In this document: in pieces, positions 871 through 60,059 of the stretch
Numbering within the stretch: the first letter of the stretch is position 1
Layout: each line of letters begins with the position of its first letter
Assembly (NCBI GenBank): GCA_045654685.1
Contig: JAZONV010000088.1
Span: 585-64,584 of the forward strand
Direction of reading: 5' to 3'
Source: Clostridia bacterium
GTDB lineage: Bacteria; Bacillota; Clostridia; UMGS1810
Length of the DNA: 64,000 nucleotides
Translations under genes and position numbers: made by a program
Notes under the pieces: model-generated
Told to the model about the DNA's origin: nothing
Databases searched by the model: none
What the model saw: only the letters and a program-made list of their open reading frames with translations

Positions 871-3800
871 ATGAAAAAAATATTGTCAATAATGCTGACA
901 GTATTAATGTGTTTTAGTTCAATGTTTGGTTCAGTTGTGTATGTTGCTGCAGATTCTGCGGCAACATACACTTTCTCAAATATTGAAGCTAAAGCAGGTG
1001 ATACAGTAGAAGTACTTGTCACATATACTTCGGCACAAGAAGCAAACTTAACCGCATTGGCTGAAATTACACTTTCAAGCGCTGATGCGGAAATTGTTGG
1101 TTTTACTTATTCAGACGAAGTTGAAGGATTGATCAACACCGGATTGTCAAATTACGATCCCAAAACAAAATCCTTAATCACTCTGTTTAATGAAGCTATG
1201 ATTTATGACGGTGTTTTAGGAACACTTGAAATAAAAATAGGTGATGAAGCTTCTTTGGGTGACATTACAATTTCTGCATCTTCTGTTGTTGTTAATGAAA
1301 ACACAGAAACAGAAATTCTCTCATCCGTAACAAACGGCACAATCACAATTGATGATGGTACAGAACCTGCAGAAAAGGCAGTATATACCATCGGAACAGC
1401 AGAGGCAAATCCCGGTCAGACAGTAATTGTAGACCTGAGATACACCTCCGGCGGAAATGCGAACCTCAGCGCAATTGCAGAGTTTGAACTTTCAAATAAC
1501 GATGCAGAAATTGTAGGTTTCACATTCTCCGATGAAGCAAAAGCAGTTATTAGCCAGTTGTCAAACTATGATCCCGAAACAAAATCGGTAATCACATTGT
1601 TTGACGATGATGCAAGAGCATTTGACGGTGTTCTTGGTACACTCCAGATCAGAGTGAACAACGATGCTCCCGAAGGTGACATCACAATCACAGCAACATC
1701 AAGAGTTCAGAACGAAGGTGTTGGCGTTGTGGAATCAGAAGTTGTAGACGGTAAAATTACAGTTGTTAATTCCGTTGAACCTCCCATGCCACCATACTTC
1801 ACAATCGGTGATGCTCAGGCAGATGCTGGTGATGTTGTACAGGTTGAAGTAAACTTCACATCAAGTGTTGATGTTAACCTTGTTGCACTTGCTCAACTTA
1901 ATGTTGGCGACAAAGCAGAAATCATCGAATTTGAATTTGATGATGATTTCAAATCATATATCAACGTAGGGCTTTCAAACTATGATGCTGAAACAAAATC
2001 TGTAATCATACTCTTTAAAGAGGCTATGGAATATGAAGGTATTATCGGAAGATTCACCATAAAAGTTGCAGATGGTGCATCAGGCAGTGACATTACAGTA
2101 ACTGCCGGATCAAGAGTTCAGAATGAAGAAGGAGAAGGAATTATTGATTCTATGGTTTATGCCGGAACAATCACAGTTTCCAATCCCGTTGTTCCTGAAA
2201 TTGAATCTATCGTAGTCGATGCTGATGCATTTGAAATTGCAGATGCTGACAAAGATAATGAAGAAATAATTATCGCTGCTGCAAAAGATGCAATCGAAAC
2301 AATAACAGTTAAGTGGACAGAAGGCAAAGAAGATACATTCATCACAACAGATGATGTTGACTTTGAAGTAGATACTCAAGCTAAAACAGTTACAGTATCA
2401 TACGGTCAGTTCACAGATGTTATTGAATACACAGTTGCACAGCCCATACCGGCTTCCTCTCTCACATTTGGTGATGCAGACGTGGATGCAGGTGAGATTG
2501 CAGAAGTTGATGTAATTCTCAATATAACAGAGAATGCAAATCTTATTGGTATAGGTGACATTTCATTCTCAAGCCAATACGCTGAAATTGAAGATTTTGT
2601 TTTCTCCGATGAAGTGGATGGACTTATTAATGATCGTCTTTCAACCTATGACCCCGAATTGCGTTCGATTGGTGTGTTGTTTACAGACCTTATGAAATTC
2701 AATGGCATACTCGGTACATTGAAAGTTAAAATTTCTGAAGATGCTCCTTCCGGAGATATCACAGTTACTGCAAGAATTTTCAATGTTAAAGACGATGAAG
2801 CGCATGTGGTTTTTGAATCTGAAATTATAAATGGTACAATTTCCGTTACAGAAATTGAGCCTCCACCGGTTATGATGCATACTGTTTCATTCTATGTTGA
2901 CAATGAAATATATGATGAAATAGATGTTGAAGAAGGAACAAAGATTGGCGATAAGATGCCTGCAGATCCTGAAAAAGAAGGATTTGAATTTGTTAAGTGG
3001 GATGTAGTTTCAGGTGAGGCTGTAACAGCTGAAACTGTTGTATATTACAGTTTCTCCACACAAGCAGTATTTGAAGCAAAAGAATACACCGTTATCTACT
3101 ATGTAGATGGCGTTGAAGTTAACAAAGCAACAGTTAAATATGGTGAAGCAATTCCTGAATTTGACTATGTTGCACCTGAAGGCTATGAATTCTCAGGTTG
3201 GGATGCAGAAGTTCCTGCAACAATGCCTGCAGAAAACCTTGACTTTAACGGAACACTTACCGCAAAAGAATACACAGTTATCTACTATGTAGATGGCGTT
3301 GAAGTTAACAAAGCAACAGTTAAATATGGTGAAGCAATTCCTGAATTTGACTATGTTGCACCTGAAGGCTATGAGTTCTCAGGCTGGGATGCAGAAGTAC
3401 CTGCAACAATGCCTGCAGAAGATCTTGATTTCAACGGAACACTTACTGCAAAAGAATATACCGTAACATACTATGTAGACGGTGTAGAAGTTAACAAAGC
3501 AACAGTTAAATACGGAGAAGCAATTCCCGCATATAACTATGAAGTTCCCGAAGGTTATGATTTCTCAGGTTGGGATGCAGAAGTACCTGCAACAATGCCT
3601 GCAGAAAACCTTGAGTTTAACGGAACACTTACCGCAAAAGAATACACAGTAACCTACTATGTAGATGGAGATATCTATGATGAAATAAGTGTTACAGATG
3701 GTGAAATGATTGGAGATCAGATGCCCGAAGTTCCTTTAAAAGAAGGTTGGCTTTTCACAGGTTGGGTAGATGAAAATGGCGAAAAAGTTACAGCTGATAC

Positions 3801-4038
3801 TGTTGTTGAAGCTGAAATGACTTTGACAGCAACCTTCATATCTTTGGATGTTAATAGTGACGGAGTTGTAGATTCACAGGATTCAATCTATTTGCTTAAT
3901 CATTGTGTACTTCCCCGTCTCTACCCTGTAGATGAAGAACTTGATCTTGACTACAACGGTGACGGCAAAGTTAATTCCGGTGATGCCATTTTCCATCTGG
4001 CAACGATTGCACTTCCTGCAATCTATTCCCTCAGATAA
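871..4038 (+). CDS. Scaffoldin-like surface protein: signal peptide, four cohesin-like modules, an X module, Flg_new-type repeats, C-terminal dockerin-like module
   Basis: RBS-like GAAAGGGAAA upstream and a hydrophobic signal peptide (MKKILSIMLTVLMCFSS). Four modules of about 135 aa begin ..AGDTVEV.V.. and end ..G(T/K)ITV, with an internal LSNYDP.TKS.I.LF motif. Repeats EYTV.YYVDGVEVNKATVKYGEAIP..GYEFSGWD follow. C-terminal DVNSDGVVDSQDSIYLL / DYNGDGKVNSGDAIFHL. Confidence 0.7.
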   Translation: MKKILSIMLTVLMCFSSMFGSVVYVAADSAATYTFSNIEAKAGDTVEVLVTYTSAQEANLTALAEITLSSADAEIVGFTYSDEVEGLINTGLSNYDPKTKSLITLFNEAMIYDGVLGTLEIKIGDEASLGDITISASSVVVNENTETEILSSVTNGTITIDDGTEPAEKAVYTIGTAEANPGQTVIVDLRYTSGGNANLSAIAEFELSNNDAEIVGFTFSDEAKAVISQLSNYDPETKSVITLFDDDARAFDGVLGTLQIRVNNDAPEGDITITATSRVQNEGVGVVESEVVDGKITVVNSVEPPMPPYFTIGDAQADAGDVVQVEVNFTSSVDVNLVALAQLNVGDKAEIIEFEFDDDFKSYINVGLSNYDAETKSVIILFKEAMEYEGIIGRFTIKVADGASGSDITVTAGSRVQNEEGEGIIDSMVYAGTITVSNPVVPEIESIVVDADAFEIADADKDNEEIIIAAAKDAIETITVKWTEGKEDTFITTDDVDFEVDTQAKTVTVSYGQFTDVIEYTVAQPIPASSLTFGDADVDAGEIAEVDVILNITENANLIGIGDISFSSQYAEIEDFVFSDEVDGLINDRLSTYDPELRSIGVLFTDLMKFNGILGTLKVKISEDAPSGDITVTARIFNVKDDEAHVVFESEIINGTISVTEIEPPPVMMHTVSFYVDNEIYDEIDVEEGTKIGDKMPADPEKEGFEFVKWDVVSGEAVTAETVVYYSFSTQAVFEAKEYTVIYYVDGVEVNKATVKYGEAIPEFDYVAPEGYEFSGWDAEVPATMPAENLDFNGTLTAKEYTVIYYVDGVEVNKATVKYGEAIPEFDYVAPEGYEFSGWDAEVPATMPAEDLDFNGTLTAKEYTVTYYVDGVEVNKATVKYGEAIPAYNYEVPEGYDFSGWDAEVPATMPAENLEFNGTLTAKEYTVTYYVDGDIYDEISVTDGEMIGDQMPEVPLKEGWLFTGWVDENGEKVTADTVVEAEMTLTATFISLDVNSDGVVDSQDSIYLLNHCVLPRLYPVDEELDLDYNGDGKVNSGDAIFHLATIALPAIYSLR
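3079..3636 (+). repeat. Three tandem near-identical 186-bp (62-codon) in-frame repeats encoding Flg_new-type modules
   Basis: Units start at 3079, 3265 and 3451 (KEYTV(I/T)YYVDGVEVNKATVKYGEAIP...). A fourth, diverged unit begins at 3637. Confidence 0.9.
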
Positions 4039-13255: not shown

Positions 13256-13428
13256 ATGAATTCCAAAGGAATTCATTGAAGTTAAAACTCGCCAAAGCGA
13301 GTTTTTTCCATAATGTCTGCTATGCAGACATTTCATGCTGCGAAGCAGTATTTCATGAAACCGAAGGTTTTATTTCATGCACCTTCAGGTGCATTTCATT
13401 CTCACTAATTGATTTTCAATCAGTGAGA
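13256..13428. repeat. Array of seven short perfect hairpins with four ATTTCAT linkers
   Basis: Hairpins at 13256-13276, 13284-13305, 13315-13329, 13338-13348, 13358-13370, 13379-13392 and 13400-13428. ATTTCAT at 13330, 13350, 13372 and 13393 (period 20-22 bp). Confidence 0.85.
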
Positions 13429-16142: not shown

Positions 16143-17429
16143 ATGAGTAATATAAAACTCGGAATTTTTGGAACAGGCAGAGCAAAATTTCTTGTTCCCG
16201 ACTTTTTGCTCAACGGCTTTGACATTGTTGCAGTATGCGACATGAACGCTGAACGTATGAAAATGGTAACCGATCAGCTGGGCGATGATGTGGCATGCTA
16301 CACAGATTTTGATGAATTCATAAAACACGACATGGATGCAGTATTTTTAGGGAACTTCTTCCACGAGCATGCTCCCTTTGCAATAAAATGCTTTGAAAGA
16401 GGAATTCATGTACTCAGCGAATGTATCAGTAACGGCACCATGGCAGAAGGTGTCGAACTTCTTCGTGCTTTTGAAAAGTCAGAAAGCATCTATATGCTTG
16501 CAGAGAACTATCCCCAGAGAAGATGTTGCCTTGAAATGAAACGTGTTTGTGAAGGCGGAACACTTGGAAAAATCCTTTATGCAGAGGGTGAATATAATCA
16601 TCCCGGACAGGGCACAAATGCATCCAACACAAAAATGTATAACTATTTCCCTGAGCACTGGAGAAATTATCTTCCCAGAAGTTATTATGTTACCCATTCT
16701 CTCGGTCCCATTATGGCGGCAACAGGTGCAACACCTGTGAGAGTTGCAAGTTTCAATATTTTTGATCCTGCTGATGAAAGCGTACCGAGTGCATCATATG
16801 TGGGAGACAGAGCAGCCATCATAACAACTCAAAACGATGACGGCTCAGTATTTAAGTTTACCGGTCATGCATCCTTTGGCGGACATCACAATTCCTATCG
16901 CATATGCGGAAGTAAAGGTCAGATTGAAAACATCCGCGGTATGGAAGATAAGATTATGTTAAGATACAATGACTGGGAAATCCCCGAAGGCATGGAAGAA
17001 ATCAACTGCTATGACCCAAAGTGGGATGAAACTGCAAACCAGGAGAGGTTAAAGGTGAGCGGACACGGCGGTGGAGATTTCCTCACAGTCCGTATGTTTG
17101 CAGATTGTGTGAGAAACAAAAAGCAACCTTCTCATCCCTTTGATGTCTATTCTGCAGTTAATATGTCATCTGTTGCAATCCTTGCTCACCGTTCAATGTT
17201 AGATGGCGGAGTGCCCTATGACATTCCTGATTTTACAAAAGAAGAAGTCAGAGTACAGTTTGAAAACGACAGACTCACACCATTCCATGGTTCAGACGGC
17301 TCCAAACCCAACATTCCATGTTGTTCTGTTACGGACTATAAGCCTACTCCCGAACAGATTGAAATGAAAAACAAACTTATTGAAAATGCACAGACAGACA
17401 GCGAAAGTGAGAAAAAACATAACGTGTAA
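16143..17429 (+). CDS. Gfo/Idh/MocA-family oxidoreductase
   Basis: N-terminal Rossmann motif (KLGIFGTGRA) and overall family resemblance. Divergent from the AraC gene. Confidence 0.6.
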   Translation: MSNIKLGIFGTGRAKFLVPDFLLNGFDIVAVCDMNAERMKMVTDQLGDDVACYTDFDEFIKHDMDAVFLGNFFHEHAPFAIKCFERGIHVLSECISNGTMAEGVELLRAFEKSESIYMLAENYPQRRCCLEMKRVCEGGTLGKILYAEGEYNHPGQGTNASNTKMYNYFPEHWRNYLPRSYYVTHSLGPIMAATGATPVRVASFNIFDPADESVPSASYVGDRAAIITTQNDDGSVFKFTGHASFGGHHNSYRICGSKGQIENIRGMEDKIMLRYNDWEIPEGMEEINCYDPKWDETANQERLKVSGHGGGDFLTVRMFADCVRNKKQPSHPFDVYSAVNMSSVAILAHRSMLDGGVPYDIPDFTKEEVRVQFENDRLTPFHGSDGSKPNIPCCSVTDYKPTPEQIEMKNKLIENAQTDSESEKKHNV

Positions 17430-17681
17430 ATTGGAATTTATTGGTTTGATAAAACTTGGCTAAAGAGAAAAAAATGTCCCCCTTGCCTAAAGGGGGATGT
17501 CAATCCGAAAGGATTGACAGGGGGATTCTATGTGTACAATCATTCAAAAACGCAGTATTTGTACGTGTTTCTATGAATAATGAATCCTCCCGTCACGCTA
17601 ACGCGTGCCACCCTCCTTTAGGCAAGGAGGGCTTTCGCTTCAGCGTTTTTTCATCATCATTAGTGAGCTAAATTCCAATTT
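17428..17681. repeat. Hairpin cluster bounded by a 13-bp inverted repeat
   Basis: aaattggaattta (17428-17440) / taaattccaattt (17669-17681). The same two arms are directly adjacent at 28758-28790. Inside lie hairpins tccccc..ggggga, tgtcaatcc-gaaa-ggattgaca, cacgc-taac-gcgtg and ccctcc..ggaggg. Confidence 0.7.
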
Positions 17682-28533: not shown

Positions 28534-28790
28534 AGGGATTGTACCCTAATCGTATAATACGCATAATTATGCGATAAATGGGAATTTGGCTAAATTTTGC
28601 ACATACGTGCAAAGCTAAATAGTAGCTTTGCTACAGCTAAATTGCATCAAAGATGCAGCTAAATAAAATTTGCCGAAGCTGCCCAAAGGGCAATTTAGCT
28701 CCCGAAGGGAATTTAGCTGACGTAAGTCAATTTAGCTTGCCGCAGGCAAATTTAGCTAATTGGAATTTATCACAAGATAAATTCCAATTT
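28534..28790. repeat. Array of at least 12 short perfect hairpins, with four GCTAAAT linkers followed by four ATTTAGC linkers
   Basis: GCTAAAT at 28589, 28614, 28636 and 28658. ATTTAGC at 28693, 28711, 28730 and 28750. Intervening hairpins include tgcacatacgtgca, gtagctttgctac, tgcatcaaagatgca, gcccaaagggc, cccgaaggg, gacgtaagtc and tgccgcaggca. Terminal hairpin aattggaatttat..ataaattccaatt. Confidence 0.9.
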
Positions 28791-28920
28791 ATATATTATA
28801 CAGTTAAAGAGACAGTCCCTTCGTTTTAAAGAGTTCAATTTTTTTAAAAAAGGACATTTTCGTTAAATAATGTGCAGATTTAAAAGATATTAATATACAA
28901 TAAAAGGATAATTTACTACA

Positions 28921-38003: not shown

Positions 38004-38275
38004 AACAAAAAGCAACACATCGCAATTTCGTGAAATATCTTTTCAAGATATTTTTCTCTGATTTTTGCCTTTTTGCTCTTGCCAAACCTCACCCTCGCAG
38101 TACCTTTGTACAGCTTCGGGCTACCGCGGTAATCGGGAACCATTCCCGATTACCGTTCGGTTTGACAATTCCGAATCATTTTTTCCTGCCCCCGAGTGAT
38201 AGTAAAAATTGCTCGCAATTTTTACTATCACCATTCTCGGCTCGTTATTAAACAAAGCGATAAATTGGAGTTTAA

Positions 38276-38331
38276 CTCACTGATTGATTTTCAATCAGTG
38301 AGAATGAAATGCACCTTATGGTGCATGAAAT
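38276..38331. repeat. Partial second copy of the ATTTCAT hairpin array, with linkers in the opposite sense
   Basis: ctcactgattgattttcaatcagtgag - aatgaaat - gcaccttatggtgc - atgaaat. The same two hairpins occur at 13379-13428. Confidence 0.8.
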
Positions 38332-38346
38332 GAAACAATCGATTTT

Positions 38347-45540: not shown

Positions 45541-47214
45541 ATGAAAAAAGTACTTTGTATGCTCATGACATTTGTTATGGTGATATGTACGTGCGCCTAT
45601 GCTGCAGACATTTCAATCAAAGACGCAGGCAAAAACATCATAACAGTCAAGGGAGAAGCACCGGTGGGTGCAACAGTTACCATTGCGGTGCTGAACCCCG
45701 GATATGATGTGTCTGATGTTGCCGTATCGGGAGAAAGAGCTTTGCAATATTACGGCAAAGTTGCATCAGGCACCAACGAATTTGAACTTGACGTGAAAAT
45801 GGAAGACCCATACCTGTTCGGAGGCGGTGAATACACATTCATAATTTCTGATAAGTCATCCACCTCTACAGACAGTTTCGGATTCTATTTCTTTGAGAAA
45901 AAGATTGCAGAAATTCAAACTCTCAACGAAAGCGGTTCTGACGGAAGAGCAAAAGAACTTTTTAAAGTTTACAGTCTTGATAAGCACGAGCTTGTGCCGG
46001 TGGTGAAAGAAGAAACCGTCGAAAAAATTCTTGCTCTTGAAGATGAATATGAAATAGATGTAGACAAGATGTATGGAATACTGGTTGAAACACTTTGTAT
46101 CGGGGCATACAGGGACGGTGTTTCAAAACTTTTGAAAAACGGATTTCTCACCTATACAGACATTGTGGGAATAGACTCCGAATCCACATATGAAGATTAT
46201 CTTTCAAACATAAACGAAACAGGTGTCAATGCCGTAAATGATGATGTTTTGGGAAATGAATATAAAACCTCAAGTGAAATCAGAGAAACATTTTCAAAAT
46301 CTGTTCTTTTGAACCTCATAACCAATTCACCCAAAATGGGATATGGTCATGTTTCGGGAATTCTCGAAAAATATGAAGAAGAACTTTCTTTGTTTGGGTT
46401 TGATACAGAAAAGTTAGATGATGTTAAAAACAAGGTTTATGTCTACAAAAAACTTGTTGCATCAGATGCCAAAACTTTGGATGAACTTACCGATACTTTT
46501 GAAAAAGCCATAAAAAATGCTGACGAATCAAAAGAGACAACCTCCGGCGGCGGAGGCGGTGGTGGAGGCGGAGTGTCCGCTCCTTCCGTTTCAGCACCGG
46601 CAGACGGAGCAGAAAAACCTGTTTCAACTGAGCAAAACACTTCCGGCGGATATGTTGAAAACACATCTGTTCCCTTTGAAGATATGAATGATGCATCATG
46701 GGCAACAGACTCTGTTGCATATCTTTACAGACGCGGAATCATATCGGGAAAATCAAGCCGGACCTTTGACCCATCAGGTCTTGTTACAAGAGAAGAATTT
46801 GCAAAAATGGCAGTTCTTGCATTTGTAGGCTCTGCAAGCGGCTCTGTTTCATCCTTTGAAGATGTTTCAGGCTGGTCAGCGCCATATGTGGCAATGGCGG
46901 CATCAAAGGGAATTGTAACCGGAATTTCCGAAAAAGAGTTTAACCCAAAAGGTAATGTTACCCGTGAACAAGCTGCAACAATAATTGCAAGAGCAATGGA
47001 AACTGCAGGATTTGTATTCGAAAATACCGGAGTAAAATTTGACGATGACGATTCAATAAGTGACTGGGCGAAAGAAAAAATTGCCCTTCTTGCCTCCGAA
47101 GAAATAATTTCCGGCAGAGGAGACGGTATGTTCCGTCCCTTGGATAATATGACAAGAGCAGAGGCGGCAAAACTCATATTTGAAGCAATGATGAGAACAG
47201 GAGGAACAAACTGA
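45541..47214 (+). CDS. SLH-anchored surface protein (unknown N-terminal region, poly-Gly linker, three SLH repeats)
   Basis: Signal peptide, then TSGGGGGGGGG linker, then FEDMNDASWATDSVAYLYRRGIISG.., FEDVSGWSAPYVAMAASKGIVTG.., DDDSISDWAKEKIALLASEEIISG.. Confidence 0.8.
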   Translation: MKKVLCMLMTFVMVICTCAYAADISIKDAGKNIITVKGEAPVGATVTIAVLNPGYDVSDVAVSGERALQYYGKVASGTNEFELDVKMEDPYLFGGGEYTFIISDKSSTSTDSFGFYFFEKKIAEIQTLNESGSDGRAKELFKVYSLDKHELVPVVKEETVEKILALEDEYEIDVDKMYGILVETLCIGAYRDGVSKLLKNGFLTYTDIVGIDSESTYEDYLSNINETGVNAVNDDVLGNEYKTSSEIRETFSKSVLLNLITNSPKMGYGHVSGILEKYEEELSLFGFDTEKLDDVKNKVYVYKKLVASDAKTLDELTDTFEKAIKNADESKETTSGGGGGGGGGVSAPSVSAPADGAEKPVSTEQNTSGGYVENTSVPFEDMNDASWATDSVAYLYRRGIISGKSSRTFDPSGLVTREEFAKMAVLAFVGSASGSVSSFEDVSGWSAPYVAMAASKGIVTGISEKEFNPKGNVTREQAATIIARAMETAGFVFENTGVKFDDDDSISDWAKEKIALLASEEIISGRGDGMFRPLDNMTRAEAAKLIFEAMMRTGGTN

Positions 47215-49877
47215 TGACGAAAAAACTCATAGCGTTGGTTTTGAGTGTTTTTGTGGCTTTTTCATCTTGTGCAATGACAGTATTTGGTGAAGAAGCTTCA
47301 GATACTCAAACCACAGTTTCTGCAGATGTTGAATTTGCAAAAGCCTTAGGGATTTTCGCAGATGATGTTGTCCCTGAAGAAACAGTAAAGAGAATAGATC
47401 TTGCAAAATGTATTCTGAACATAATTTTAAAAGGAACAGAACTTTCAACAGAAGACGGAAGCCTTCTTTTTGATGATGTAGAATATGATGATTCAGGATA
47501 TGCAGATGCCATTTCAAAGGCCGGCATAATGGGCGGAGTCGGCAACAGACAGTTTGCTCCCGGCGATAGTGTTACATATTCTCAGGTTTTGAAAGTTTTT
47601 GTATCCTTCCTTGGCTATGATGTGAAAGCACAGGGGCTTGGCGGATATCCGTCAGGATATATGGCAGTTGCAACACAGCTTGGCATAACTGACAAATATG
47701 CCCCCTACGGTGACAGCTTTGTAACATGGGAAAGTTTGGCTTCAATGTTTAAACGTTCTCTGGGAGTTCCGCTTTTCCAGGTAGTGTCCTACAAGGATTC
47801 CACATTTATCTACAATCCCAATCTTGAAAAAGACTATTTGAGAGAATATTTCGGAATACAAAGATATTCCGATGTCATAAACGGAGTGTACGGAACCAAT
47901 GTTATCGGATATGCAGATGTTGAGTATGATGAAATTCTTCTCGGAACAACAGTTTTCAGATTCAACACAGATGTGTTTGATTTGTCTGAAAAACTCGGAT
48001 ACAAAATAGAAGCATATTATGCTGATAACGGCGACCATAATGAAATTTTATATTATGATGAATATGACAATGGTGTAATTTCCCTGGACGGCAGAGAAGT
48101 TGAAGGATTCGAAGGCGGAATCCTCTACTACAACGGCAAAAAGGAAAAGAAATTAAAAATCAATACCGAAACCAACATCATATATAATGGTAAAAACTGT
48201 TCCACCTATGATGAGGACATATTCAGCGTATGGAATCTTTCTTCAATGGACGGTTCATTAAAGGCAATTGACAACAATTCCGACGGAACATATGATTTTA
48301 TTATTCTCGATGCCTACGAATCCTATGTTGTGGGTTCAATAATCGGTGATACAATCGTCCCGAAATACAGAACAGGTTCATATGTTGACATTTCTTCATA
48401 TGTTGAGGGTGAAAACCTTCTTTTCTACAACCTTAAAGGCAAACCAATCAGTATTGAAAAGGTTGTCAAAGGATGCATCATAAGCGTAAGTCACGACATT
48501 GACGGAAATGTGTCCAAAATTATTGTAACAACAGACTCCTACACGGGAGAGATAGACGAAATTGAAGTTGAAAACGGAAGATATTATTTGACAGTTGACG
48601 GAACAAGATATACACCATCCGAAGTTTTGAAACTCAATCCCCAGATTAAAACTTTGAGAGCAGGACAGAAAGTCACCATGATGTTCAACAAGGGCGGTCT
48701 TCTTTCCGATGTTGATGCTCTCGCTTTCCAGATTATTGAAACCGCATATCTTTATGCGGCGAAAAAAGGAAAAGGTCTTGATGCTCAAAACAGCGCAACC
48801 ATCAGAGCGTTCTCCTCGGGCGGATTTTTCCAGAACTATGATCTTGCAGAGCATGTTGAAGTTGTATGGGGCTCGGAAACAGATGTTAAAAAACCTCATG
48901 AAGTTCTTGCAATTTTAGGAAAAACAAATGAGACCGACGTTACAAGACAGGTTATTAATTTCAAGAAAAACGATGAAGGAAAAATAAACTGGATAAACAT
49001 TGCAAGTGACAATGAAAGAAACATAGACGGTCTCTACAGATACGACCTTGATGCCATGGGAATGACAGGTTCAAAAAATTATCTCGGAAACGGATTTGAA
49101 GGCAAACTTTTAGTTAGCGGAACTTCTGTTTTCTCTGTTCCCACAGAAGCCAACAGATACGATGAAGATGTATACTTTGTCGGAAGTCTTACAAACAACA
49201 AAAACTTTACTTTGAGTGAAGCCTATGGTGATGAAAAAAATGGCAACGTTGCTCATTCCATCGTAATTTTGAATGACAAATCCGGAACATTTAAAAATTC
49301 GCCCGGATATATGATTGTTGAGTCAGTTACAAATGCCGTAGATTATGACAGCACACCTTCTGTTAAGATTACAGGCTACATTGCAGGTGCTCAAAAAGAG
49401 TATTTCGGTGACGAAAATGTTCTTAAAAGCGTGACAGGTTCCAATCCCGAAAAAGGCGACCTTATAAAATTCACACTTGACAGAGAAGGACGCATATCCG
49501 AACTTTCTGAATTTGTTTTTGACTCTTCCGAAAGATTTTCAGGAGACATTGCAAAGATGATTCCCACAAAAAAGACAAACCCAAGTCACACCTCTTTTAA
49601 TGTAACAGAAAGATATGTGTTTGGAAAAATCATCAGGTCAAATGATGAAAGTTTTGTTCTCGAAGTGAACAATGGCACCACAATCACAAATGAGTCATAT
49701 TTGAAAGCTGCATCCTACAGATATTACACCTATGAAGACATCGGCTCAAAAGGCGGTCTTTTGCAAAAGGCAAAAAATGAAGCAGTATATGCTTTCCCCG
49801 AAGGTTCACCAAAAGCAAATTATGCAGTAGTATTTGTTAACTATGGTGTTCCCACCGATATAATAGTGTACAGATAA
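47214..49877 (+). CDS. Large secreted protein with N-terminal SLH-like repeats and a long beta-rich region of unknown function
   Basis: TGATG stop/start overlap with the upstream gene. Signal peptide. FDDVEYDDSGYADAISKAGIMGGVGNRQFAPGDSVTYSQVLKVFVSFLG is SLH-like. Confidence 0.7.
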   Translation: MTKKLIALVLSVFVAFSSCAMTVFGEEASDTQTTVSADVEFAKALGIFADDVVPEETVKRIDLAKCILNIILKGTELSTEDGSLLFDDVEYDDSGYADAISKAGIMGGVGNRQFAPGDSVTYSQVLKVFVSFLGYDVKAQGLGGYPSGYMAVATQLGITDKYAPYGDSFVTWESLASMFKRSLGVPLFQVVSYKDSTFIYNPNLEKDYLREYFGIQRYSDVINGVYGTNVIGYADVEYDEILLGTTVFRFNTDVFDLSEKLGYKIEAYYADNGDHNEILYYDEYDNGVISLDGREVEGFEGGILYYNGKKEKKLKINTETNIIYNGKNCSTYDEDIFSVWNLSSMDGSLKAIDNNSDGTYDFIILDAYESYVVGSIIGDTIVPKYRTGSYVDISSYVEGENLLFYNLKGKPISIEKVVKGCIISVSHDIDGNVSKIIVTTDSYTGEIDEIEVENGRYYLTVDGTRYTPSEVLKLNPQIKTLRAGQKVTMMFNKGGLLSDVDALAFQIIETAYLYAAKKGKGLDAQNSATIRAFSSGGFFQNYDLAEHVEVVWGSETDVKKPHEVLAILGKTNETDVTRQVINFKKNDEGKINWINIASDNERNIDGLYRYDLDAMGMTGSKNYLGNGFEGKLLVSGTSVFSVPTEANRYDEDVYFVGSLTNNKNFTLSEAYGDEKNGNVAHSIVILNDKSGTFKNSPGYMIVESVTNAVDYDSTPSVKITGYIAGAQKEYFGDENVLKSVTGSNPEKGDLIKFTLDREGRISELSEFVFDSSERFSGDIAKMIPTKKTNPSHTSFNVTERYVFGKIIRSNDESFVLEVNNGTTITNESYLKAASYRYYTYEDIGSKGGLLQKAKNEAVYAFPEGSPKANYAVVFVNYGVPTDIIVYR

Positions 49878-49891
49878 GGAGGTTAAGATAT

Positions 49892-52800
49892 ATGAAAAAA
49901 ATTATAAGTATAATTCTTGCATCGCTTCTTCTTTTTTCAAGTGCAAGTGCGGCAGTACGCCCCATAAAATTTTATGATTTGGTTTCAAATGAAAATCTTA
50001 TCTTCCCTGAAAAAGTAATTCCTGTTCTGACAGACGGTAACATTGTTATTGAAGCAGAAGACATGGACTATAAAGACCAGGCAAAAGTTGTTCCCAATGA
50101 AAAAGCATCCGGCGGATACGGAATCACTTGTCAGAATGCAACTTTTACAAGTGATGTGGCATTGGTTGATAATGTTACAATGGGATTCAAAGTGGAAATT
50201 CCTGTGTGGGAAATCGGAACATATCATTTGTGGCTTCGTATTTATACCCCCAATTCAAGTTCCACATCCTTTTTTGAATCCTACACAGGCTCATCAGCAT
50301 ATAAAGCAAGATGGCTTACCGTAAAACCTGATTTTTATTGGGTAAAAATCGGAGCGATAAATATGTCTGACGGTATTTTTGAATATAATATAAAATACAG
50401 AGACGTTGGCTTTACTCTTGATAAATTCATCATAACAAACGATAAAAATTTTAATCCTGTCGGAAAAGATGATTTGCCCGACTCAATGCTTGGCATTGAG
50501 AAAGAGCCGATAGCTCCGCCTCCACCGTTTACACCTCCTGCAGGTGTTCACCCCAGAGTAATGGTTCAGGAAAAGGATCTTCCCCAAATCAAGGAAAATG
50601 TGAAGAGCGCTCTCCTTGCTCCCATGTATTCCCAGGTTAAGCAAAGAGCCTTCCTTGAAATGGATTGCCATATGCCCAACAAAGGAATTGCAAATAACGT
50701 GTCTTTGGCACATGTTTTCAATATCCAATGCAGAGCCTTCATATATCTTATGGGTGAAGCGGACAAAGCCCATGCAAGACAAACAGTTCAGTATATGAGA
50801 GATATGTATGACACTCTCATTTGGGACAGAACTGTCGGCGATATCACCCGTCAGATGGGTACAGTTCTTGCAGTAAGCGGATGTGTATATGACTGGTGTT
50901 TTGATGTTTTAACAGACGAAGATAAAGATTATTTCATCAAAAGAATGAAACGTCTTGCATCAATGATGGAAATCGGCTATCCTGCATCTATGCATGAAAC
51001 CTTTGCAGGACACGGTGGTGAAGGTGAACTTTTCTACTTCCAGTCCACAGCCGGAATTGCTATCTATGATGAAGACCCCCAGATGTATAATGCTGCTGCA
51101 GGTGTTCTCTATGAGCACATGTTCCGGACAAGAGAATATTTCAACCATTCAGGTCATCACCCTGCAGGTACTGCATACGGTCCTGTCAGAGCCACATGGG
51201 AAATCATCGGTCAGCTTGTGTTTGAAAGACTTGGTGACCCCAATGTAATGGGAAATGAAACAGACAAAATTCCTTACAGTTTCATAAACTTCAGACAGCC
51301 AAACGGTCTTTTCATAGAAGATGGTGACACATGGATTGCCGTAAATCCCACCACAGGGCCCACATATTCAGCAAACGACCTTCCTATGATGGTATATTCA
51401 ATGCACTTTGGCAACCCCTATGTAAATGGTGAAGCAGTAAAACAGCTTTCTCTCAGAAACTATTCTGCAGGCTCATCACTTTATGATAATGGTGTTCTTG
51501 CCCTTCTCTTTGTAGACCCCAATGTTGGCTACACCTATCCCGATGATTACGGCAAGGAAATGCCCCTCACTCACTTCACAGAATACCCAATCACCACAAT
51601 GACATCAAGAACTTCATGGAGATCAGGTATTGACGGTGAAACTGCAGTTGTGTTTGTAAACGGTCAGGAAAAACTTGTTGGTGACCATGACCATGAGCAC
51701 TCCGATATCGGCGGATTCTCCATCTACTATAAAGGTCTTCTCACATCAGGTGGCGGAACCTATGCAGGTGAAAACGGCGGATGGGGTATAAAACACTACT
51801 ACAACTACTACAGAAGAACGGTTTCCAAAAACTGTCTCACAATATATGATCCCGATGAAACATTCGGAATTACGGGATATCCCATAAAGTATGACCTTGC
51901 AAATGACGGCGGTCAGAGATTTGAAGAAAACACAGACACTTTGCCTGAATTCCTTGAACACGCAGACCATGCAAAAACTGTCGGAACCTATGCAGGCCCC
52001 AACAGACAAACTCCGGAGTTTTCATATCTCAAAACCGACCTTACAGATGCATATTCCGATAAAATCACAGGCTACACCCGTTCAACTGTCAGCCTGAACC
52101 TTTTCAACACAGATTATCCTCTTGTATTCATTTGCTATGATAACGTGTCATCTGCAAAATCCACATTCAAAAAGACATGGAATCTTCAGTCAATTGAAAC
52201 AGAGCCTGTAACAGTTAACAACGTGACAACAATCACAAGAAACAGTTATGGCTACACAGGAAAACTTGTTGTAAACACTCTCATTCCCGAAGGTCAGAAC
52301 GCAGTATTTGAAAATGTGGGCGGTGACGGAAAAGAAAGTTTGTCAGGCGGTGCAAATCATCCCAACCCCGACAAAGCAGGAGCAGACCACGAACAGGGCA
52401 AATGGAGACTTGAACTTTCACCAAGAAAGAACTCAAAGGATGACATTTTCTTAAATGCAATGTTTGTAACAGACAGAACGAAAAATCTTCCCGACCTTCC
52501 AATGACAAAGATTGAAACACTCGATTTTGTGGGAGTGTCTGTTATGGACAGACTTGTTCTTTTCTCAAAGAAAAGAGATGCAGTTTCCACCTCTTTCAAC
52601 ATAACAGTTCCAACTTCCGAATATAGCGAAATCTGCACTCTCATAACAGATGTAGCCCCCGGAAAATGGCAGGTTACAGGTGCAAACGGCTCATTTGTAA
52701 CAGAAGTTAAGGCGGAAGAAAAAGCTCTCTATGCCCGACTCAAAGCAGGGGACTATTCTTTCACAAAAGTGGATGATTCCACAGAAGCTGTAAAAATTGA

Positions 52801-53611
52801 CTACCCCAGAGACGAAAGAGTACTTCGTACAGGTGATGTTTTGGTATATGACCAGACAGGCAAACGTTTTGCCTACACTCATCAGCCAACAGTTTTGAAA
52901 GATGGTCAGCCATATCTTTCCGAAGATGATTTCAGACAATATGGCGTTGATGTTGCAGTAAGCGGAAATCAGATTATCCTCACAAGAGCTAATCACCGCA
53001 CAACCATGACAATGGGTGATACATATGCGGTATCAAATGATGTCGGCATAAATCTCACATCTGCACCTTTCGTAGGGGAAAACGGTCAGGTATATATCAA
53101 TCCTCTTGACCACAAGAAAATTCTTAATGCAAATATGTATTTTGATTCATATTCAAGAATTCTGAGAACCTTGAAACTGGCTGAAAAAGGCAGCTCCGAG
53201 ATGTTAAACGGCGTTGTTGATACAAACAAAGTAGTTGAGCCAATTTACTATGAAGCATCAGGCACAGACGGAAATGACGTTTCAGGAGCCTTTGACTATA
53301 ACTACAAAACAAGATGGTCATCAGAAGGTGTATCTGAATATATCATCATTGACTATGGTACAAAGATAGATTTTGACAAGCTTATGATTGCATTCCTTGA
53401 AGGTGATCTCAGAAGAGAAAAATTTGAAATCTTAGTATCCGATGACGGAATTGAATTCAAAGAAGTGTTCAAAGGTGAGTCAAGCGGTGCTACTGCCGAG
53501 CTTGAGCCTTTCCTTGTTAACGCATCGGGAAGATATGTCAAAGTATACTGCCACGGAAACAATCTTAATAAATGGAACTCAATACTTGAAATTGTAGCAC
53601 TTGAAAAATAA
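49892..53611 (+). CDS. Heparinase II/III-like (DUF4962-type) putative polysaccharide lyase with an N-terminal CBM-like module and a C-terminal discoidin (F5/8 type C)-like module
   Basis: Starts 14 nt after the upstream stop. IVIEAEDMDY..GYGITC..LDKFIITND (CBM-like); PPAGVHPRVMV..; HGGEGELFYF; GDHDHEHSDIGGFSIYYKG (heparinase II/III-like); C-terminal ..YNYKTRWSSEG..YVKVYCHGNNLNKWNSILEI. Confidence 0.65.
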   Translation: MKKIISIILASLLLFSSASAAVRPIKFYDLVSNENLIFPEKVIPVLTDGNIVIEAEDMDYKDQAKVVPNEKASGGYGITCQNATFTSDVALVDNVTMGFKVEIPVWEIGTYHLWLRIYTPNSSSTSFFESYTGSSAYKARWLTVKPDFYWVKIGAINMSDGIFEYNIKYRDVGFTLDKFIITNDKNFNPVGKDDLPDSMLGIEKEPIAPPPPFTPPAGVHPRVMVQEKDLPQIKENVKSALLAPMYSQVKQRAFLEMDCHMPNKGIANNVSLAHVFNIQCRAFIYLMGEADKAHARQTVQYMRDMYDTLIWDRTVGDITRQMGTVLAVSGCVYDWCFDVLTDEDKDYFIKRMKRLASMMEIGYPASMHETFAGHGGEGELFYFQSTAGIAIYDEDPQMYNAAAGVLYEHMFRTREYFNHSGHHPAGTAYGPVRATWEIIGQLVFERLGDPNVMGNETDKIPYSFINFRQPNGLFIEDGDTWIAVNPTTGPTYSANDLPMMVYSMHFGNPYVNGEAVKQLSLRNYSAGSSLYDNGVLALLFVDPNVGYTYPDDYGKEMPLTHFTEYPITTMTSRTSWRSGIDGETAVVFVNGQEKLVGDHDHEHSDIGGFSIYYKGLLTSGGGTYAGENGGWGIKHYYNYYRRTVSKNCLTIYDPDETFGITGYPIKYDLANDGGQRFEENTDTLPEFLEHADHAKTVGTYAGPNRQTPEFSYLKTDLTDAYSDKITGYTRSTVSLNLFNTDYPLVFICYDNVSSAKSTFKKTWNLQSIETEPVTVNNVTTITRNSYGYTGKLVVNTLIPEGQNAVFENVGGDGKESLSGGANHPNPDKAGADHEQGKWRLELSPRKNSKDDIFLNAMFVTDRTKNLPDLPMTKIETLDFVGVSVMDRLVLFSKKRDAVSTSFNITVPTSEYSEICTLITDVAPGKWQVTGANGSFVTEVKAEEKALYARLKAGDYSFTKVDDSTEAVKIDYPRDERVLRTGDVLVYDQTGKRFAYTHQPTVLKDGQPYLSEDDFRQYGVDVAVSGNQIILTRANHRTTMTMGDTYAVSNDVGINLTSAPFVGENGQVYINPLDHKKILNANMYFDSYSRILRTLKLAEKGSSEMLNGVVDTNKVVEPIYYEASGTDGNDVSGAFDYNYKTRWSSEGVSEYIIIDYGTKIDFDKLMIAFLEGDLRREKFEILVSDDGIEFKEVFKGESSGATAELEPFLVNASGRYVKVYCHGNNLNKWNSILEIVALEK

Positions 53612-57391: not shown

Positions 57392-57394
57392 TTA

Positions 57395-60046: not shown

Positions 60047-60059
60047 GGAGGTTGAGATA

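Follow-up and report, generated by a model that had tools for sequence, protein, structure and literature searches.

The window, i.e. the whole 64 kb stretch of DNA that was analysed, carries at positions 28534-28790 an array of eight 7-nt linkers with interspersed hairpins, located between two co-directional genes whose direction is shared by the + strand and not by orientation B. The latter is the - strand of the window, so named since it matches the orientation of the Rfam family Gut-1. The coordinates of the eight linkers in a first-pass annotation were all exact, and its wording of constant linkers with variable palindromic spacers describes the array correctly (Table 1). The hairpins between the linkers have perfect stems of 4-7 bp and loops of 3-4 nt. 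An exact look-up of the window's own protein returned zero matches.

Table 1. Coordinates of the array and of related structures in the 64 kb window.
Feature	Position	Strand	Basis or remarks
Sister array, canonical one-armed Gut-1	13325-13401	-	four ATGAAAT linkers; Rfam 56.1 bits (cut-off 50)
Separate foldback of ~250 nt	17428-17681	+	closed by AAATTGGAATTTAT and its complement; folding z-score -8.7
Three small flanking palindromes	28534-28573		AGGG..CCCT 28534-28547; CGTATaATACG 28551-28561; CGCATAATTATGCG 28560-28573
ATAAATGGGAATTT	28574-28587	+	13 of 14 positions complementary to 28779-28792 (inverted repeat)
Linker GCTAAAT (R4 in B)	28589-28595	+	exact match
Hairpin hp7, TTTGCAC atac GTGCAAA	28596-28613		perfect-hairpin list
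Linker GCTAAAT (R3 in B)	28614-28620	+	exact match
Hairpin hp6, GTAGC ttt GCTAC	28622-28634		perfect-hairpin list
Linker GCTAAAT (R2 in B)	28636-28642	+	exact match
Hairpin hp5, TGCATC aaa GATGCA	28643-28657		perfect-hairpin list
Linker GCTAAAT (R1 in B)	28658-28664	+	exact match
Asymmetric centre	28665-28679		+ strand AAAATTTGCCGAAGC; B strand GCTTCGGCAAATTTT
Hairpin hp4, TGCCC aaa GGGCA	28680-28692		perfect-hairpin list
Linker L4 in B, ATTTAGC on +, GCTAAAT on -	28693-28699	-	exact match
Hairpin hp3, TCCC gaa GGGA	28700-28710		perfect-hairpin list
Linker L3 in B (ATTTAGC on +)	28711-28717	-	exact match
Hairpin hp2, TGAC gtaa GTCA	28718-28729		perfect-hairpin list
Linker L2 in B (ATTTAGC on +)	28730-28736	-	exact match
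Hairpin hp1, TTGCC gca GGCAA	28737-28749		perfect-hairpin list
Linker L1 in B (ATTTAGC on +)	28750-28756	-	exact match
14-bp terminal hairpin, one base from L1	28758-28789		inverted repeat; followed on + by TATATATTAT, scored terminator-like
TATAAT, 5 nt before the long hairpin	28795-28800	-	read from the sequence; missed by consensus promoter scan
Second, truncated copy of the Gut-1 array at 13.3 kb	38272-38336	+	long hairpin and two units; 28.5 bits, E 0.0017

The eight linkers of the array form an extreme local cluster, far from chance, because eight of the 11 GCTAAAT/ATTTAGC sites of the window sit inside 168 bp while the total is close to that of shuffled sequences (10.6). The dense perfect hairpins reported earlier were confirmed: the 257-nt array region holds 21 (overlaps included), and 257-nt windows over the locus reach 24, the maximum of the 64 kb (mean 5.0, sd 2.7). 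Folding z-scores of the array were -6.6 (+ strand RNA), -6.3 (- strand RNA) and -10.1 (DNA parameters).

Regarding the edges of the array, the three small palindromes show no conservation at other family loci and therefore probably lie outside the family core. The adjoining ATAAATGGGAATTT could, from its complementarity, close the whole element in competition with the terminal hairpin. That long hairpin resembles a + strand terminator, and the TATAAT beyond it, which has no good -35, is a possible -10 box for B-direction transcription. The recurrences noted earlier were found again, namely the terminal arms at 17428 and 17668 and the sister array at 13.3 kb, which reads as four ATTTCAT linkers on the + strand and is flanked by a long hairpin 5' and a terminator-like hairpin 3'. 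With the truncated copy at 38 kb, the window thus contains three Gut-1-type arrays; the foldback at 17.4 kb matched no Rfam family.

Gut-1 is an orphan gut motif (Rfam RF01706; Weinberg et al. 2010, PMC2864571), described in 2010 as restricted to the human gut, absent from any sequenced organism and of unknown function; both the Rfam model and the published description comprise three hairpins of one arm only (PMC2864571). A search of the literature on Gut-1 found nothing beyond the 2010 paper. The window array itself scored 19.1 bits against RF01706 (E 0.51, - strand 28688-28758), which is below the gathering threshold of 50 bits, and none of the GCTAAAT-class arrays at 18 other loci (16 two-armed, 2 one-armed) reached that threshold. 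It nevertheless has at least three variable short hairpins with a constant 7-nt linker between them (GCUAAAU, as against GUGAAAU in Gut-1), a long hairpin just before the first linker, as in the seed sequences and at nearly all loci, and hairpins that are backed by covariation. The published Gut-1 seed sequences in turn continue into a centre and a complementary second arm. What the Rfam model captures is a single arm; the full element is larger, polar and two-armed, and entire linker classes escape the model. The first-pass statement that the array fits no known element class does not hold, since the sister array is Gut-1 and the window array its two-armed variant; the assignment of the window array as a two-armed, unannotated member of the Gut-1 kind of hairpin-array element is well supported.

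The search for such arrays in other genomes, as had been proposed, returned at least 119 loci, nearly all in metagenome-assembled genomes of gut or rumen Clostridia, and the same layout recurs in dozens of gut and rumen species of Oscillospiraceae and Ruminococcaceae. After a long hairpin come four linker-hairpin units, then an asymmetric centre and four anti-linker units, and other linker classes have this layout too. On the B strand the element reads AGCUAAAU linkers (L arm), a polar centre GCU-nnnn-GGCAAAUUUU and AUUUAGCU linkers (R arm). The L-then-R order was found in 77 of 136 linker clusters and the reverse in only one, and 51 of the 62 two-armed elements have 4+4 units. The complementary second arm inferred from the window was found again, exact or near, in other linker classes. 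The array is not symmetric as had been supposed: its centre is polar and the same everywhere (family consensus TAAATTCGCC nnnn AGC), and hairpins are position-specific, with TTTGCAAC..GTTGCAAA at the hp7 position of many other loci and tandem G-A internal loops on the B strand at the hp6 position of many relatives. A strong hairpin, often a bidirectional terminator, lies one base from L1 in nearly every member. In a metagenome scan for three GTGATAT copies, most marine and lake matches were unrelated tandem repeats and were filtered out. No phage or plasmid matches of the element were obtained by BLAST; of 26 pattern matches in IMG/VR two were real elements, one of them adjoining a tRNA.

Over 133 + 123 distinct spacers of the family, about 96% of stem pairs are Watson-Crick. 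Pairing at the four outer positions of the stems reaches 92% (L arm) and 82% (R arm), compared with 51% and 44% when the 3' halves are exchanged among spacers. Spacers of 9-24 nt are tolerated without phasing, and nearly all hairpins differ from copy to copy, both inside one genome and from genome to genome, while the linkers stay fixed; a comparison of related strains for this pattern had been proposed. It is well supported that the hairpins serve as structural spacers, turning over freely in sequence with pairing kept, and that the 7-nt linkers carry the conserved information. The same holds for the view of Gut-1 as a structured non-coding module that is conserved in Oscillospiraceae and Ruminococcaceae of gut and rumen.

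Two long-range pairings were considered. The first is a rod in which linkers of one arm pair with those of the other, as proposed earlier for the single strand. This rod is the predicted minimum-energy fold of the window array on both strands, and that part of the proposal holds across the family, where the minimum-energy fold averages -58 kcal/mol compared with -39 kcal/mol for local hairpins only, linker-linker pairs adding about 20 kcal/mol. The arms are complementary or nearly so in all three two-armed classes read. The substitution pattern, however, backs the rod only weakly: among about 35 single deviant linkers a few keep the pair by a G-U wobble and the rest break it, the recurrent variants ATTTCGC and GCGAAAT are not at rod-partner positions, and in the GTGATAT class the outer linkers are systematically mismatched. 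The second pairing, P0, joins the conserved 10-mer of the centre to the first linker and the 5' arm of the first hairpin. In the window, bases 28666-28674 of the centre form a perfect 9-bp complement to bases 28745-28753, which span hp1 and the adjoining linker L1. In the family, 90% of cells are paired and 9 of 11 pairs have changes in both partners, a level attained by 0 of 500 shuffles; the pairing is kept in three linker classes. In fold predictions of the full-length strand P0 has almost zero equilibrium probability. An invertible segment was considered, the 10-bp inverted repeats of P0 flanking the L arm, and rejected, as a search for the inverted state gave only normal elements. Loop-loop kissing was also rejected: UUC (L arm) and GAA (R arm) loops are complementary as types, but the junction partners were mismatched in the elements checked by eye.

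Regarding the active strand, several features of the R arm and of the flanks are specific to one orientation. On the B strand the R arm contains 12 G-U pairs and zero A-C, and its tandem G-A loops are favourable only there; over all stems G-U pairs are very rare (~1%). Loops of the types GAA, GCA and GTA occur on the strand that reads ATTTAGC (GNA/TNC polarity), and GNA triloops are known to stabilise DNA mini-hairpins. One-armed arrays have terminators after the array in B orientation, and TG-extended -10 promoters were predicted 14-48 nt upstream in eight loci, plus L271 and L277. The consensus promoter scan found nothing next to many elements, and at 10 loci the element begins right behind a tRNA or tmRNA terminator without room for a promoter in B direction. 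A conserved module of about 26 nt, GGCATCTAAATT...TATAA, was missed by the same scan. A sigma-54 promoter was rejected by eye (GC at -12 missing), and readings of the linkers as primase CTA/TTA sites or as stop or start codons were dropped, as none holds across linker classes. Probably the element acts as a single strand, most likely RNA.

The only recurrent neighbour gene near the 119 loci encodes a four-helix-bundle protein of family PF05635. It was located just downstream of the R arm and co-oriented in 12 of the 12 pattern-derived loci that have it, look-ups starting from the protein found the element upstream in five of five cases, and every PF05635 gene examined has such an element directly upstream. 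The linker class tracks the protein subfamily (L050 type with GCTAAAT, L144 type with GTGATAT), a match that could arise from shared ancestry alone. The protein is 82-94% identical between species, with about half of the conserved codons differing, and the linked element copies hold orthologous positions that are stable over long divergence. About 84% of the two-armed elements, including that of the window, are without a nearby PF05635 gene. Gut metagenomes contain thousands of PF05635 proteins, and one species carrying the protein-plus-element locus accounted for 364 contigs. In the common human-gut carrier (loci L283-L286) the order runs tRNA, terminator, element, PF05635 gene. The family includes the proteins of 23S rRNA intervening sequences (IVS) and the Avd protein of diversity-generating retroelements (DGRs). 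The nearest solved homologue is 2rld, deposited with five chains; Avd forms a positively charged, pentameric barrel and acts together with a structured RNA (PMC6182149).

The best explanation at present, held tentatively, is that the window array is a two-armed structured single strand of Gut-1 type which either exposes or conceals a multivalent 7-nt site, perhaps one for a PF05635 protein. The strand would present a row of identical single-stranded 7-mers between clamp hairpins. Because the second arm carries the complement, the strand could close up as a rod in which four helices of 7-8 bp meet at four-way junctions, each carrying two hairpins, and the linkers would then be hidden. P0 would be a second, competing conformation, in which the centre 10-mer lies on the first linker and the 5' arm of the first hairpin. 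The candidate ligand is the highly conserved PF05635 protein; the copy before its gene would be the leader or operator of that gene, and orphan copies, the window array included, may be further targets or decoys. Stated in full, the arrays would be the nucleic-acid partners of probably pentameric PF05635 proteins, in an RNA- or ssDNA-protein system. Each arm would carry four to five repeats of a 7-nt code specific to the linker class, the complementary arm would mask the code, the centre pairing would compete with this, and the number of units would vary between strains; one copy would be autoregulatory and many orphan copies would be targets or decoys; in this extended form the reading is itself rather unlikely.

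An appreciable, if minority, chance is given to an intergenic repeat like REP/BIME or BOX, without a dedicated ligand and acting in cis at the ends of transcription units, where it could shield the 3' UTR from exonucleases, provide back-up termination or insulate the next promoter from a strong unit upstream. Duplication and recombination would spread such a repeat and alter its size, and on the lagging-strand template it might fold as ssDNA. It would account for the constant abutment on a strong, often bidirectional terminator hairpin, for the 10 loci between a tRNA or tmRNA terminator and the next promoter, and for the position of the window copy between co-directional genes with a terminator-like hairpin at its end. 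R-arm hairpins followed by AUUUAGCU also score as weak terminators. Three Gut-1-type arrays within 64 kb, a unit number that varies between strains and through internal duplication, and stems that are nearly all Watson-Crick, with loops of GNA/TNC polarity, also speak for it, and either orientation could work, because both strands read L arm then R arm. A simple barrier, however, needs neither invariant class-specific linkers nor a co-varying centre nor a modal 4+4 count, and the hairpin sequences are unconserved, the opposite of REP, BIME and BOX. The 13.3 kb Gut-1 is not at the 3' end of any gene, because it lies between divergent genes, with its own terminator. No transposase (Y1 included), RAYT or integrase recurs near the 119 loci, and the strict PF05635 adjacency would stay unexplained.

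It is improbable that the array is a MITE-like non-autonomous mobile element bounded by the inverted repeat AAATTGGAATTTAT, as is the foldback at 17.4 kb. The motif has 9 matches in the window compared with 3.4 expected, recurring at 17428/17668, 28757/28777 and near 38262, the segment at 28574-28587 pairs with 28779-28792, and genomic contexts vary among species; inverted terminal motifs are present in the source genome, but AAATTGGAATTTAT is specific to it and different hairpins fill that position in other genomes. The element is also absent upstream of the GDSL gene in relatives, where three homologues (62-66% identity) stand among different neighbours with short spacers; as synteny is already broken there, this comparison says nothing on mobility either way. 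No target-site duplication and no associated transposase were found, the copies have diverged in almost every hairpin, as expected of old elements under structural selection and not of recent transposition, and the PF05635-linked copies keep their positions.

Likewise improbable is a double-stranded array of eight protein sites, set as two opposed blocks in the manner of an operator, centromere or iteron. The bound protein might be the four-helix-bundle protein encoded next to the element, or else a sigma or transcription factor. In favour, all linkers of one arm are the same and those of the opposite arm are their complement or close to it, as a single duplex site used in both orientations would give; the element lies just upstream of the PF05635 promoter; and the -10 region there is similar to the class linker, with GCTAAAAT for one class and GTGATATATT for the other. 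The spacing, however, is neither fixed nor helically phased (9-24 nt), and every spacer is a palindrome whose stems co-vary as in a single strand, which a duplex site array does not need. The L060 arms even differ as double-stranded sites (GTGATAT and GTTATAT). Arms of 4-7 bp are too short for cruciform extrusion. The first-pass centromere or iteron reading fails in addition on the chromosomal, multi-copy nature of the element, with neither plasmid or phage matches nor par or rep genes nearby. A known defence array, i.e. CRISPR or a type III toxin-antitoxin RNA such as ToxI, is hardly credible: the regular repeat-and-spacer appearance, the variable unit number and a linker AAAU that recalls ToxN cleavage sites speak for it, but the repeats have 7 nt (in CRISPR ~23-47 nt, the spacers being unique and not palindromic and accompanied by cas genes or a leader), the spacers are palindromes of 9-24 nt and not foreign-derived, the units differ from each other where those of ToxI are near-identical, 34-45 nt long and arranged in tandem ahead of a toxin gene, and no cas or toxin genes are nearby.

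Gut-1, an orphan since 2010, is now placed in identifiable gut and rumen Oscillospiraceae and Ruminococcaceae, and the two-armed polar form, the co-varying long-range pairing, the strain-variable unit number and the PF05635-locked copy are new for it. The link to PF05635 gives Gut-1 its first testable candidate partner, so that the roles of the motif and of the protein family outside DGRs could be addressed together. If the arrays are indeed partners of these proteins, they would form a previously unrecognised RNA-protein (or ssDNA-protein) system in gut Clostridia.

Regarding known systems, the REP/BIME elements of enterobacteria and the BOX elements of pneumococcus are modular, multi-copy intergenic palindrome arrays that vary in their number of modules, often adjoin terminators and affect transcript ends; these conserve palindromes or modules, in REP/BIME with units of alternating orientation and a RAYT gene in the genome, whereas here the palindromes are free and the linkers conserved. 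Clusters of short hairpins closed by C-GNA-G loops with sheared G-A pairs are known from Streptomyces telomeres, parvovirus ITRs and the d(GCGAAGC) mini-hairpin. The arrays share with them the close packing, the loops and the G-A pairs; the ssDNA clusters, however, sit at replicon ends or origins and are bound by end-patching or Rep proteins, whereas the array is internal, chromosomal and multi-copy, and promoters and terminators occur in part of its family. The sponge RNAs CsrB/RsmZ (for CsrA) and CrcZ (for Hfq/Crc) present variable copies of a short single-stranded motif between unrelated hairpins and, like the arrays, have several paralogous genes per genome with a copy number that changes by duplication. 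The array motif lies in linkers instead of loops and is neither GGA, which is absent from loops and linkers, nor A-rich; its protein partner is only a candidate, and the self-complementary second arm has no counterpart in the sponges, so that the resemblance is one of design only. As in Avd/IVS systems, a small PF05635 four-helix-bundle protein is encoded beside a non-coding nucleic acid with extensive structure; the arrays, however, have neither a reverse transcriptase nor a template repeat nor rRNA nearby, and binding to the array is hypothetical. Compared with Gut-1 as described, the window array has the linker GCUAAAU rather than GUGAAAU or GUGAUAU, and the family as described includes neither a second arm nor the centre pairing nor a link to PF05635; both have tandem hairpins of free sequence, a constant 7-nt linker ending in A(A/U)AU and hosts among the gut Clostridia.

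The array of eight GCTAAAT/ATTTAGC linkers at 28.5 kb is a real feature. All eight linker positions given in the first-pass annotation were exact, and its spacers are mini-hairpins as described, every one a perfect stem of 4-7 bp with a loop of 3-4 nt. GCTAAAT sites number 11 in the 64 kb window (10.6 in shuffles), and 8 of the 11 are packed into 168 bp, four per strand. Up to 24 perfect hairpins per 257 nt were counted at the array, the window maximum (mean 5.0, sd 2.7), and the folding energy lay 6-10 sd below that of shuffled sequences, being low in all three computations (RNA of either strand, and DNA). An alternative hairpin, built partly from linker bases, competes with two local hairpins.

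Features of the window and of related loci (L-numbers are array loci or contigs from scans or protein look-ups)
Feature	Location	Strand	Remarks
Cohesin/dockerin protein	871-4038		
Gut-1 (Rfam) array	13325-13401	-	56 bits
Foldback, ~250 nt	17428-17681	+	immediately behind stop codon
Alternative 9-bp perfect hairpin	28609-28631		GCAAAGCTA/TAGCTTTGC
P0 pairing	28666-28674 with 28745-28753		
14-bp hairpin	right-hand end of array		closes that side
TATAAT	28795-28800	-	without -35
Two long perfect hairpins	38100-38260		13-bp and 17-bp stems; precede partial copy
Partial Gut-1 copy (truncated duplicate of the 13.3 kb array)	38272-38336	+	28.5 bits; long hairpin and two ATGAAAT units
Three-gene set, first copy	45541-53611		557/887/1239 aa
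Three-gene set, second copy, in tandem	55724-63755		555/883/1231 aa
~26-nt module	L039 2886-2941 and 3113-3160; L102 350-372 and 505-530; L044, L057, L060, L099		
~19-bp-stem hairpin	L087 5844-5900; L034, L048, L076, L094, L105, L117, L007, L016		
tRNA/tmRNA gene, terminator, element, PF05635 gene	L283-L286 about 640-1000; also L050, L055, L107		
-10 regions resembling linkers	just after R arm, e.g. L271 about 1170-1200, L283 about 960-1000		

A scan of one genome per species for three AGCTAAAT sites at 9-18 nt spacing matched at least 119 loci, so the array is not a one-off; hosts of the listed loci were nearly all Oscillospiraceae, Ruminococcus or Clostridia MAGs from human, rumen and other animal guts. 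Among the loci listed, GCTAAAT preceded ATTTAGC in 77 of 136 linker clusters (reverse order in one), and 51 of 62 two-armed elements carried 4+4 linkers (up to 2 mismatches allowed); the layout first noticed in the window is therefore a conserved architecture. The family is polar. Read on the window's + strand (orientation A), TAAATTCGCC-nnnn-AGC comes after the fourth GCTAAAT, and then a hairpin and the ATTTAGC arm; read on the reverse complement (orientation B, the window's - strand and that of the Rfam family Gut-1, RF01706), the order is long hairpin, linkers L1-L4 of the L arm with hairpins hp1-hp4, GCT-nnnn-GGCGAATTTA, and linkers R1-R4 of the R arm with hp5-hp7. The same layout was found with TCGATAT/ATATCGA linkers (L039, L024) and GTGATAT/ATATCAC linkers (L060 and 11 metagenome loci), and the unit number of one-armed arrays runs from 3 to 13, with duplications inside them. 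In about nine genomes a conserved hairpin with a ~19-bp stem (AACCCACTATGACACTTTC ... GAAAGaCGTCAgAGTGGGTT) and mutually complementary flanks (GAAAGAAA and TTTCTTC) stands downstream of the element, at 30-90 nt, and is a long terminator or else another intergenic repeat.

The units fold as single-strand hairpins, which differ by position (e.g., TCGCC..GGCGA in hp1, TTTGCAAC..GTTGCAAA in hp7), with tandem G-A internal loops frequent in hp6 and hp7. Stem pairs totalled 1605 Watson-Crick, 18 G-U, 9 A-C and 37 other. Pairing at the outer four stem positions was 92% in the L arm and 82% in the R arm, and 51% and 44%, respectively, after exchange of 3' halves among 133 and 123 distinct spacers; hairpin sequences turn over and pairing is maintained. 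Loops read in the GCTAAAT direction are TTC, TGC or TAC and never GAA, hence GAA, GCA or GTA in the ATTTAGC direction.

A new long-range pairing, P0, joins the centre 10-mer to the 3' part of L1 and the 5' arm of hp1. Three linker classes supplied 55 distinct sequences, in which 90% of P0 cells were paired and 9 of the 11 pairs had both-sided changes, for example TCGCC/GGCGA, TTGC/GCAA, TCGGC/GCCGA, TCAC/GTGA and TCGTCC/GGACGA in the hairpin part, and TAAAT/ATTTA, TATAT/ATATA and TTTAT/ATAAA in the linker part. None of 500 shuffles matched these values, slid registers reached at most 49%, and in L088, where the L arm is lost, P0 is kept as a plain hairpin. Its equilibrium probability is about zero, since it is out-competed by a rod of paired L and R linkers, which would make P0 an alternative dependent on kinetics or on a ligand. 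The rod is predicted to be favoured thermodynamically, the mean minimum free energy going from -39 to -58 kcal/mol; for it also count the arms, complementary or nearly so in every linker class examined, the modal 4+4, and the L-arm-then-R-arm order, which reads alike on both strands. Against it count some 35 single deviant linkers whose rod partners, with few wobble exceptions, do not match, the outer L linkers GTTATAT of the GTGATAT class, opposite which the R linkers are still ATATCAC, and L060, where three ATATAAC linkers face GTGATAT. Within an arm the linkers are therefore kept uniform through some cause besides the upkeep of individual helices, which points to a reader of the linker acting in trans.

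Orientation B is supported by the R arm, which on that strand has 12 G-U pairs and no A-C pair and purine-purine loops favourable on B only, by terminators behind one-armed arrays in the B direction (e.g., window 13.3 kb, L072, L159, L207), and by adjoining tRNA/tmRNA genes, of which 10 of 10 lie upstream, co-oriented, at 32-49 nt. TG-extended -10 promoters with a 17-nt spacer were found 14-48 nt upstream of L1 at eight loci, compared with three in the opposite direction, and the same type was called in the independently fetched L271 and L277. However, the consensus scan called no promoter at many loci, elements behind tRNA terminators leave no space for one, and G-U pairs are scarce overall. 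In the window the neighbours run with the + strand (a GH20 gene upstream, a GDSL gene downstream) and the long hairpin was scored as a + strand terminator, so that this element could be transcribed as GH20 3' UTR. A conserved module of ~26 nt, (T)TGGCATCTAAAT(T/C)RTTC..TTTATA(A/T), stands behind the R arm or ahead of the long hairpin and is repeated between tandem elements of different linker classes; it is promoter-like by eye, with no call in the consensus scan. The main rival explanation, a structural module of REP or BOX kind that acts in cis at transcription-unit ends, possibly with a single-stranded DNA phase, draws on the adjacency to terminators, the tolerance of orientation, the near-perfectly Watson-Crick stems and the GNA polarity of the loops, and is considered less likely than the preferred reading. 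A MITE, a CRISPR array and a ToxI-like array fit poorly, as does a double-stranded site array, whose phased form is ruled out by spacer lengths of 9 to 24 nt across the family.

The genes around the listed loci are varied housekeeping genes, with no recurrent transposase or integrase. The sole recurrent neighbour encodes a protein of 117-123 aa of Pfam PF05635 (E 2.9e-28), the 23S rRNA-intervening-sequence family. In the pattern-derived loci, 12 of 12 such genes start 24-206 nt after the R arm (11 within 90 nt), co-oriented with B. Because that sample had been chosen for arrays, the reverse test was run from five homologues picked by protein alone (P0172, P0227, P0254, P0283, P0313); on the contigs fetched, a two-armed element lay directly upstream of the gene in all five. 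No PF05635 gene is nearby in ~84% of the listed two-armed elements, that at 28.5 kb included. L050-type proteins go with GCTAAAT/ATTTAGC and L144-type proteins, ~66% identical to them, with GTGATAT/ATATCAC. Between species the protein is 82-94% identical and about half of the conserved residues have different codons; hence both the gene and its place next to the element are ancient and maintained by selection. The exact P0254 protein (L283-L285) is recorded on 364 contigs, one of 2.42 Mb, and its source is thus a very common gut organism. A recurrent order with different tRNAs is tRNA/tmRNA gene, bidirectional terminator, element and PF05635 gene. At the putative PF05635 promoter, the -10 region is similar to the linker class of the same locus (ATTTA-GCTAAAAT for one class, TGTGATATATT for the other), which may be coincidence or may mean that linkers are related to -10-like sequences.

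The strain comparison proposed in the first-pass annotation can be drawn from contigs with an identical P0313 protein, on which unit number and order differ between L arms and the R arm hardly changes. L287-L289 (about 790-900) have 4, 6 and 5 L-arm units, counting degenerate GCGGAT linkers in L288, and the same R arm and gene save one R-arm hairpin in L289. Through gain and loss of units, the L arm changes quickly.

The nearest solved homologue of the PF05635 protein, 2rld, was deposited with five chains, and Avd of DGRs is a relative. Avd is a pentameric, positively charged barrel that works with structured RNA (PMC6182149). In the preferred reading the element would act as RNA, its linkers would serve as multivalent binding sites, alternately masked and accessible under the control of the second arm and P0, and the PF05635 protein would be the ligand.

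The 17.4 kb foldback (RNA minimum free energy -103 kcal/mol, z -8.7) has AAATTGGAATTTAT and the complement as its closing arms, which are also those of the 28.5 kb element's terminal hairpin; no Rfam family matched it, and constant linkers are lacking inside. ATAAATTGGAGTTTAA lies ahead of the partial Gut-1 copy, which continues into a coding-like fragment, and the region 38100-38336 resembles an intergenic scrap heap. The first protein of the first three-gene set, the one tested, has S-layer-homology domains, and the source has the look of a gut Clostridium that degrades fibre or starch.

Gut-1 has a consensus of repeated GUGAAAU plus hairpin and was described from human gut sequences and from no sequenced organism (PMC2864571). 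The 28.5 kb element scored 19 bits against its model, on the B-left arm, and no GCTAAAT-class array at 18 tested loci, of which 16 were two-armed and 2 one-armed, reached the cut-off. In Gut-1 seed sequences with the GUGAUAU linker, GGCGAAUAUA comes next, followed by four units of AUAUCAC plus hairpin; the data thus already contained the two-armed element, but the model did not cover it. The element is a variant of a known but uncharacterised kind, and is worth following up because it supplies Gut-1 with a complete architecture, with hosts and with a candidate partner protein.
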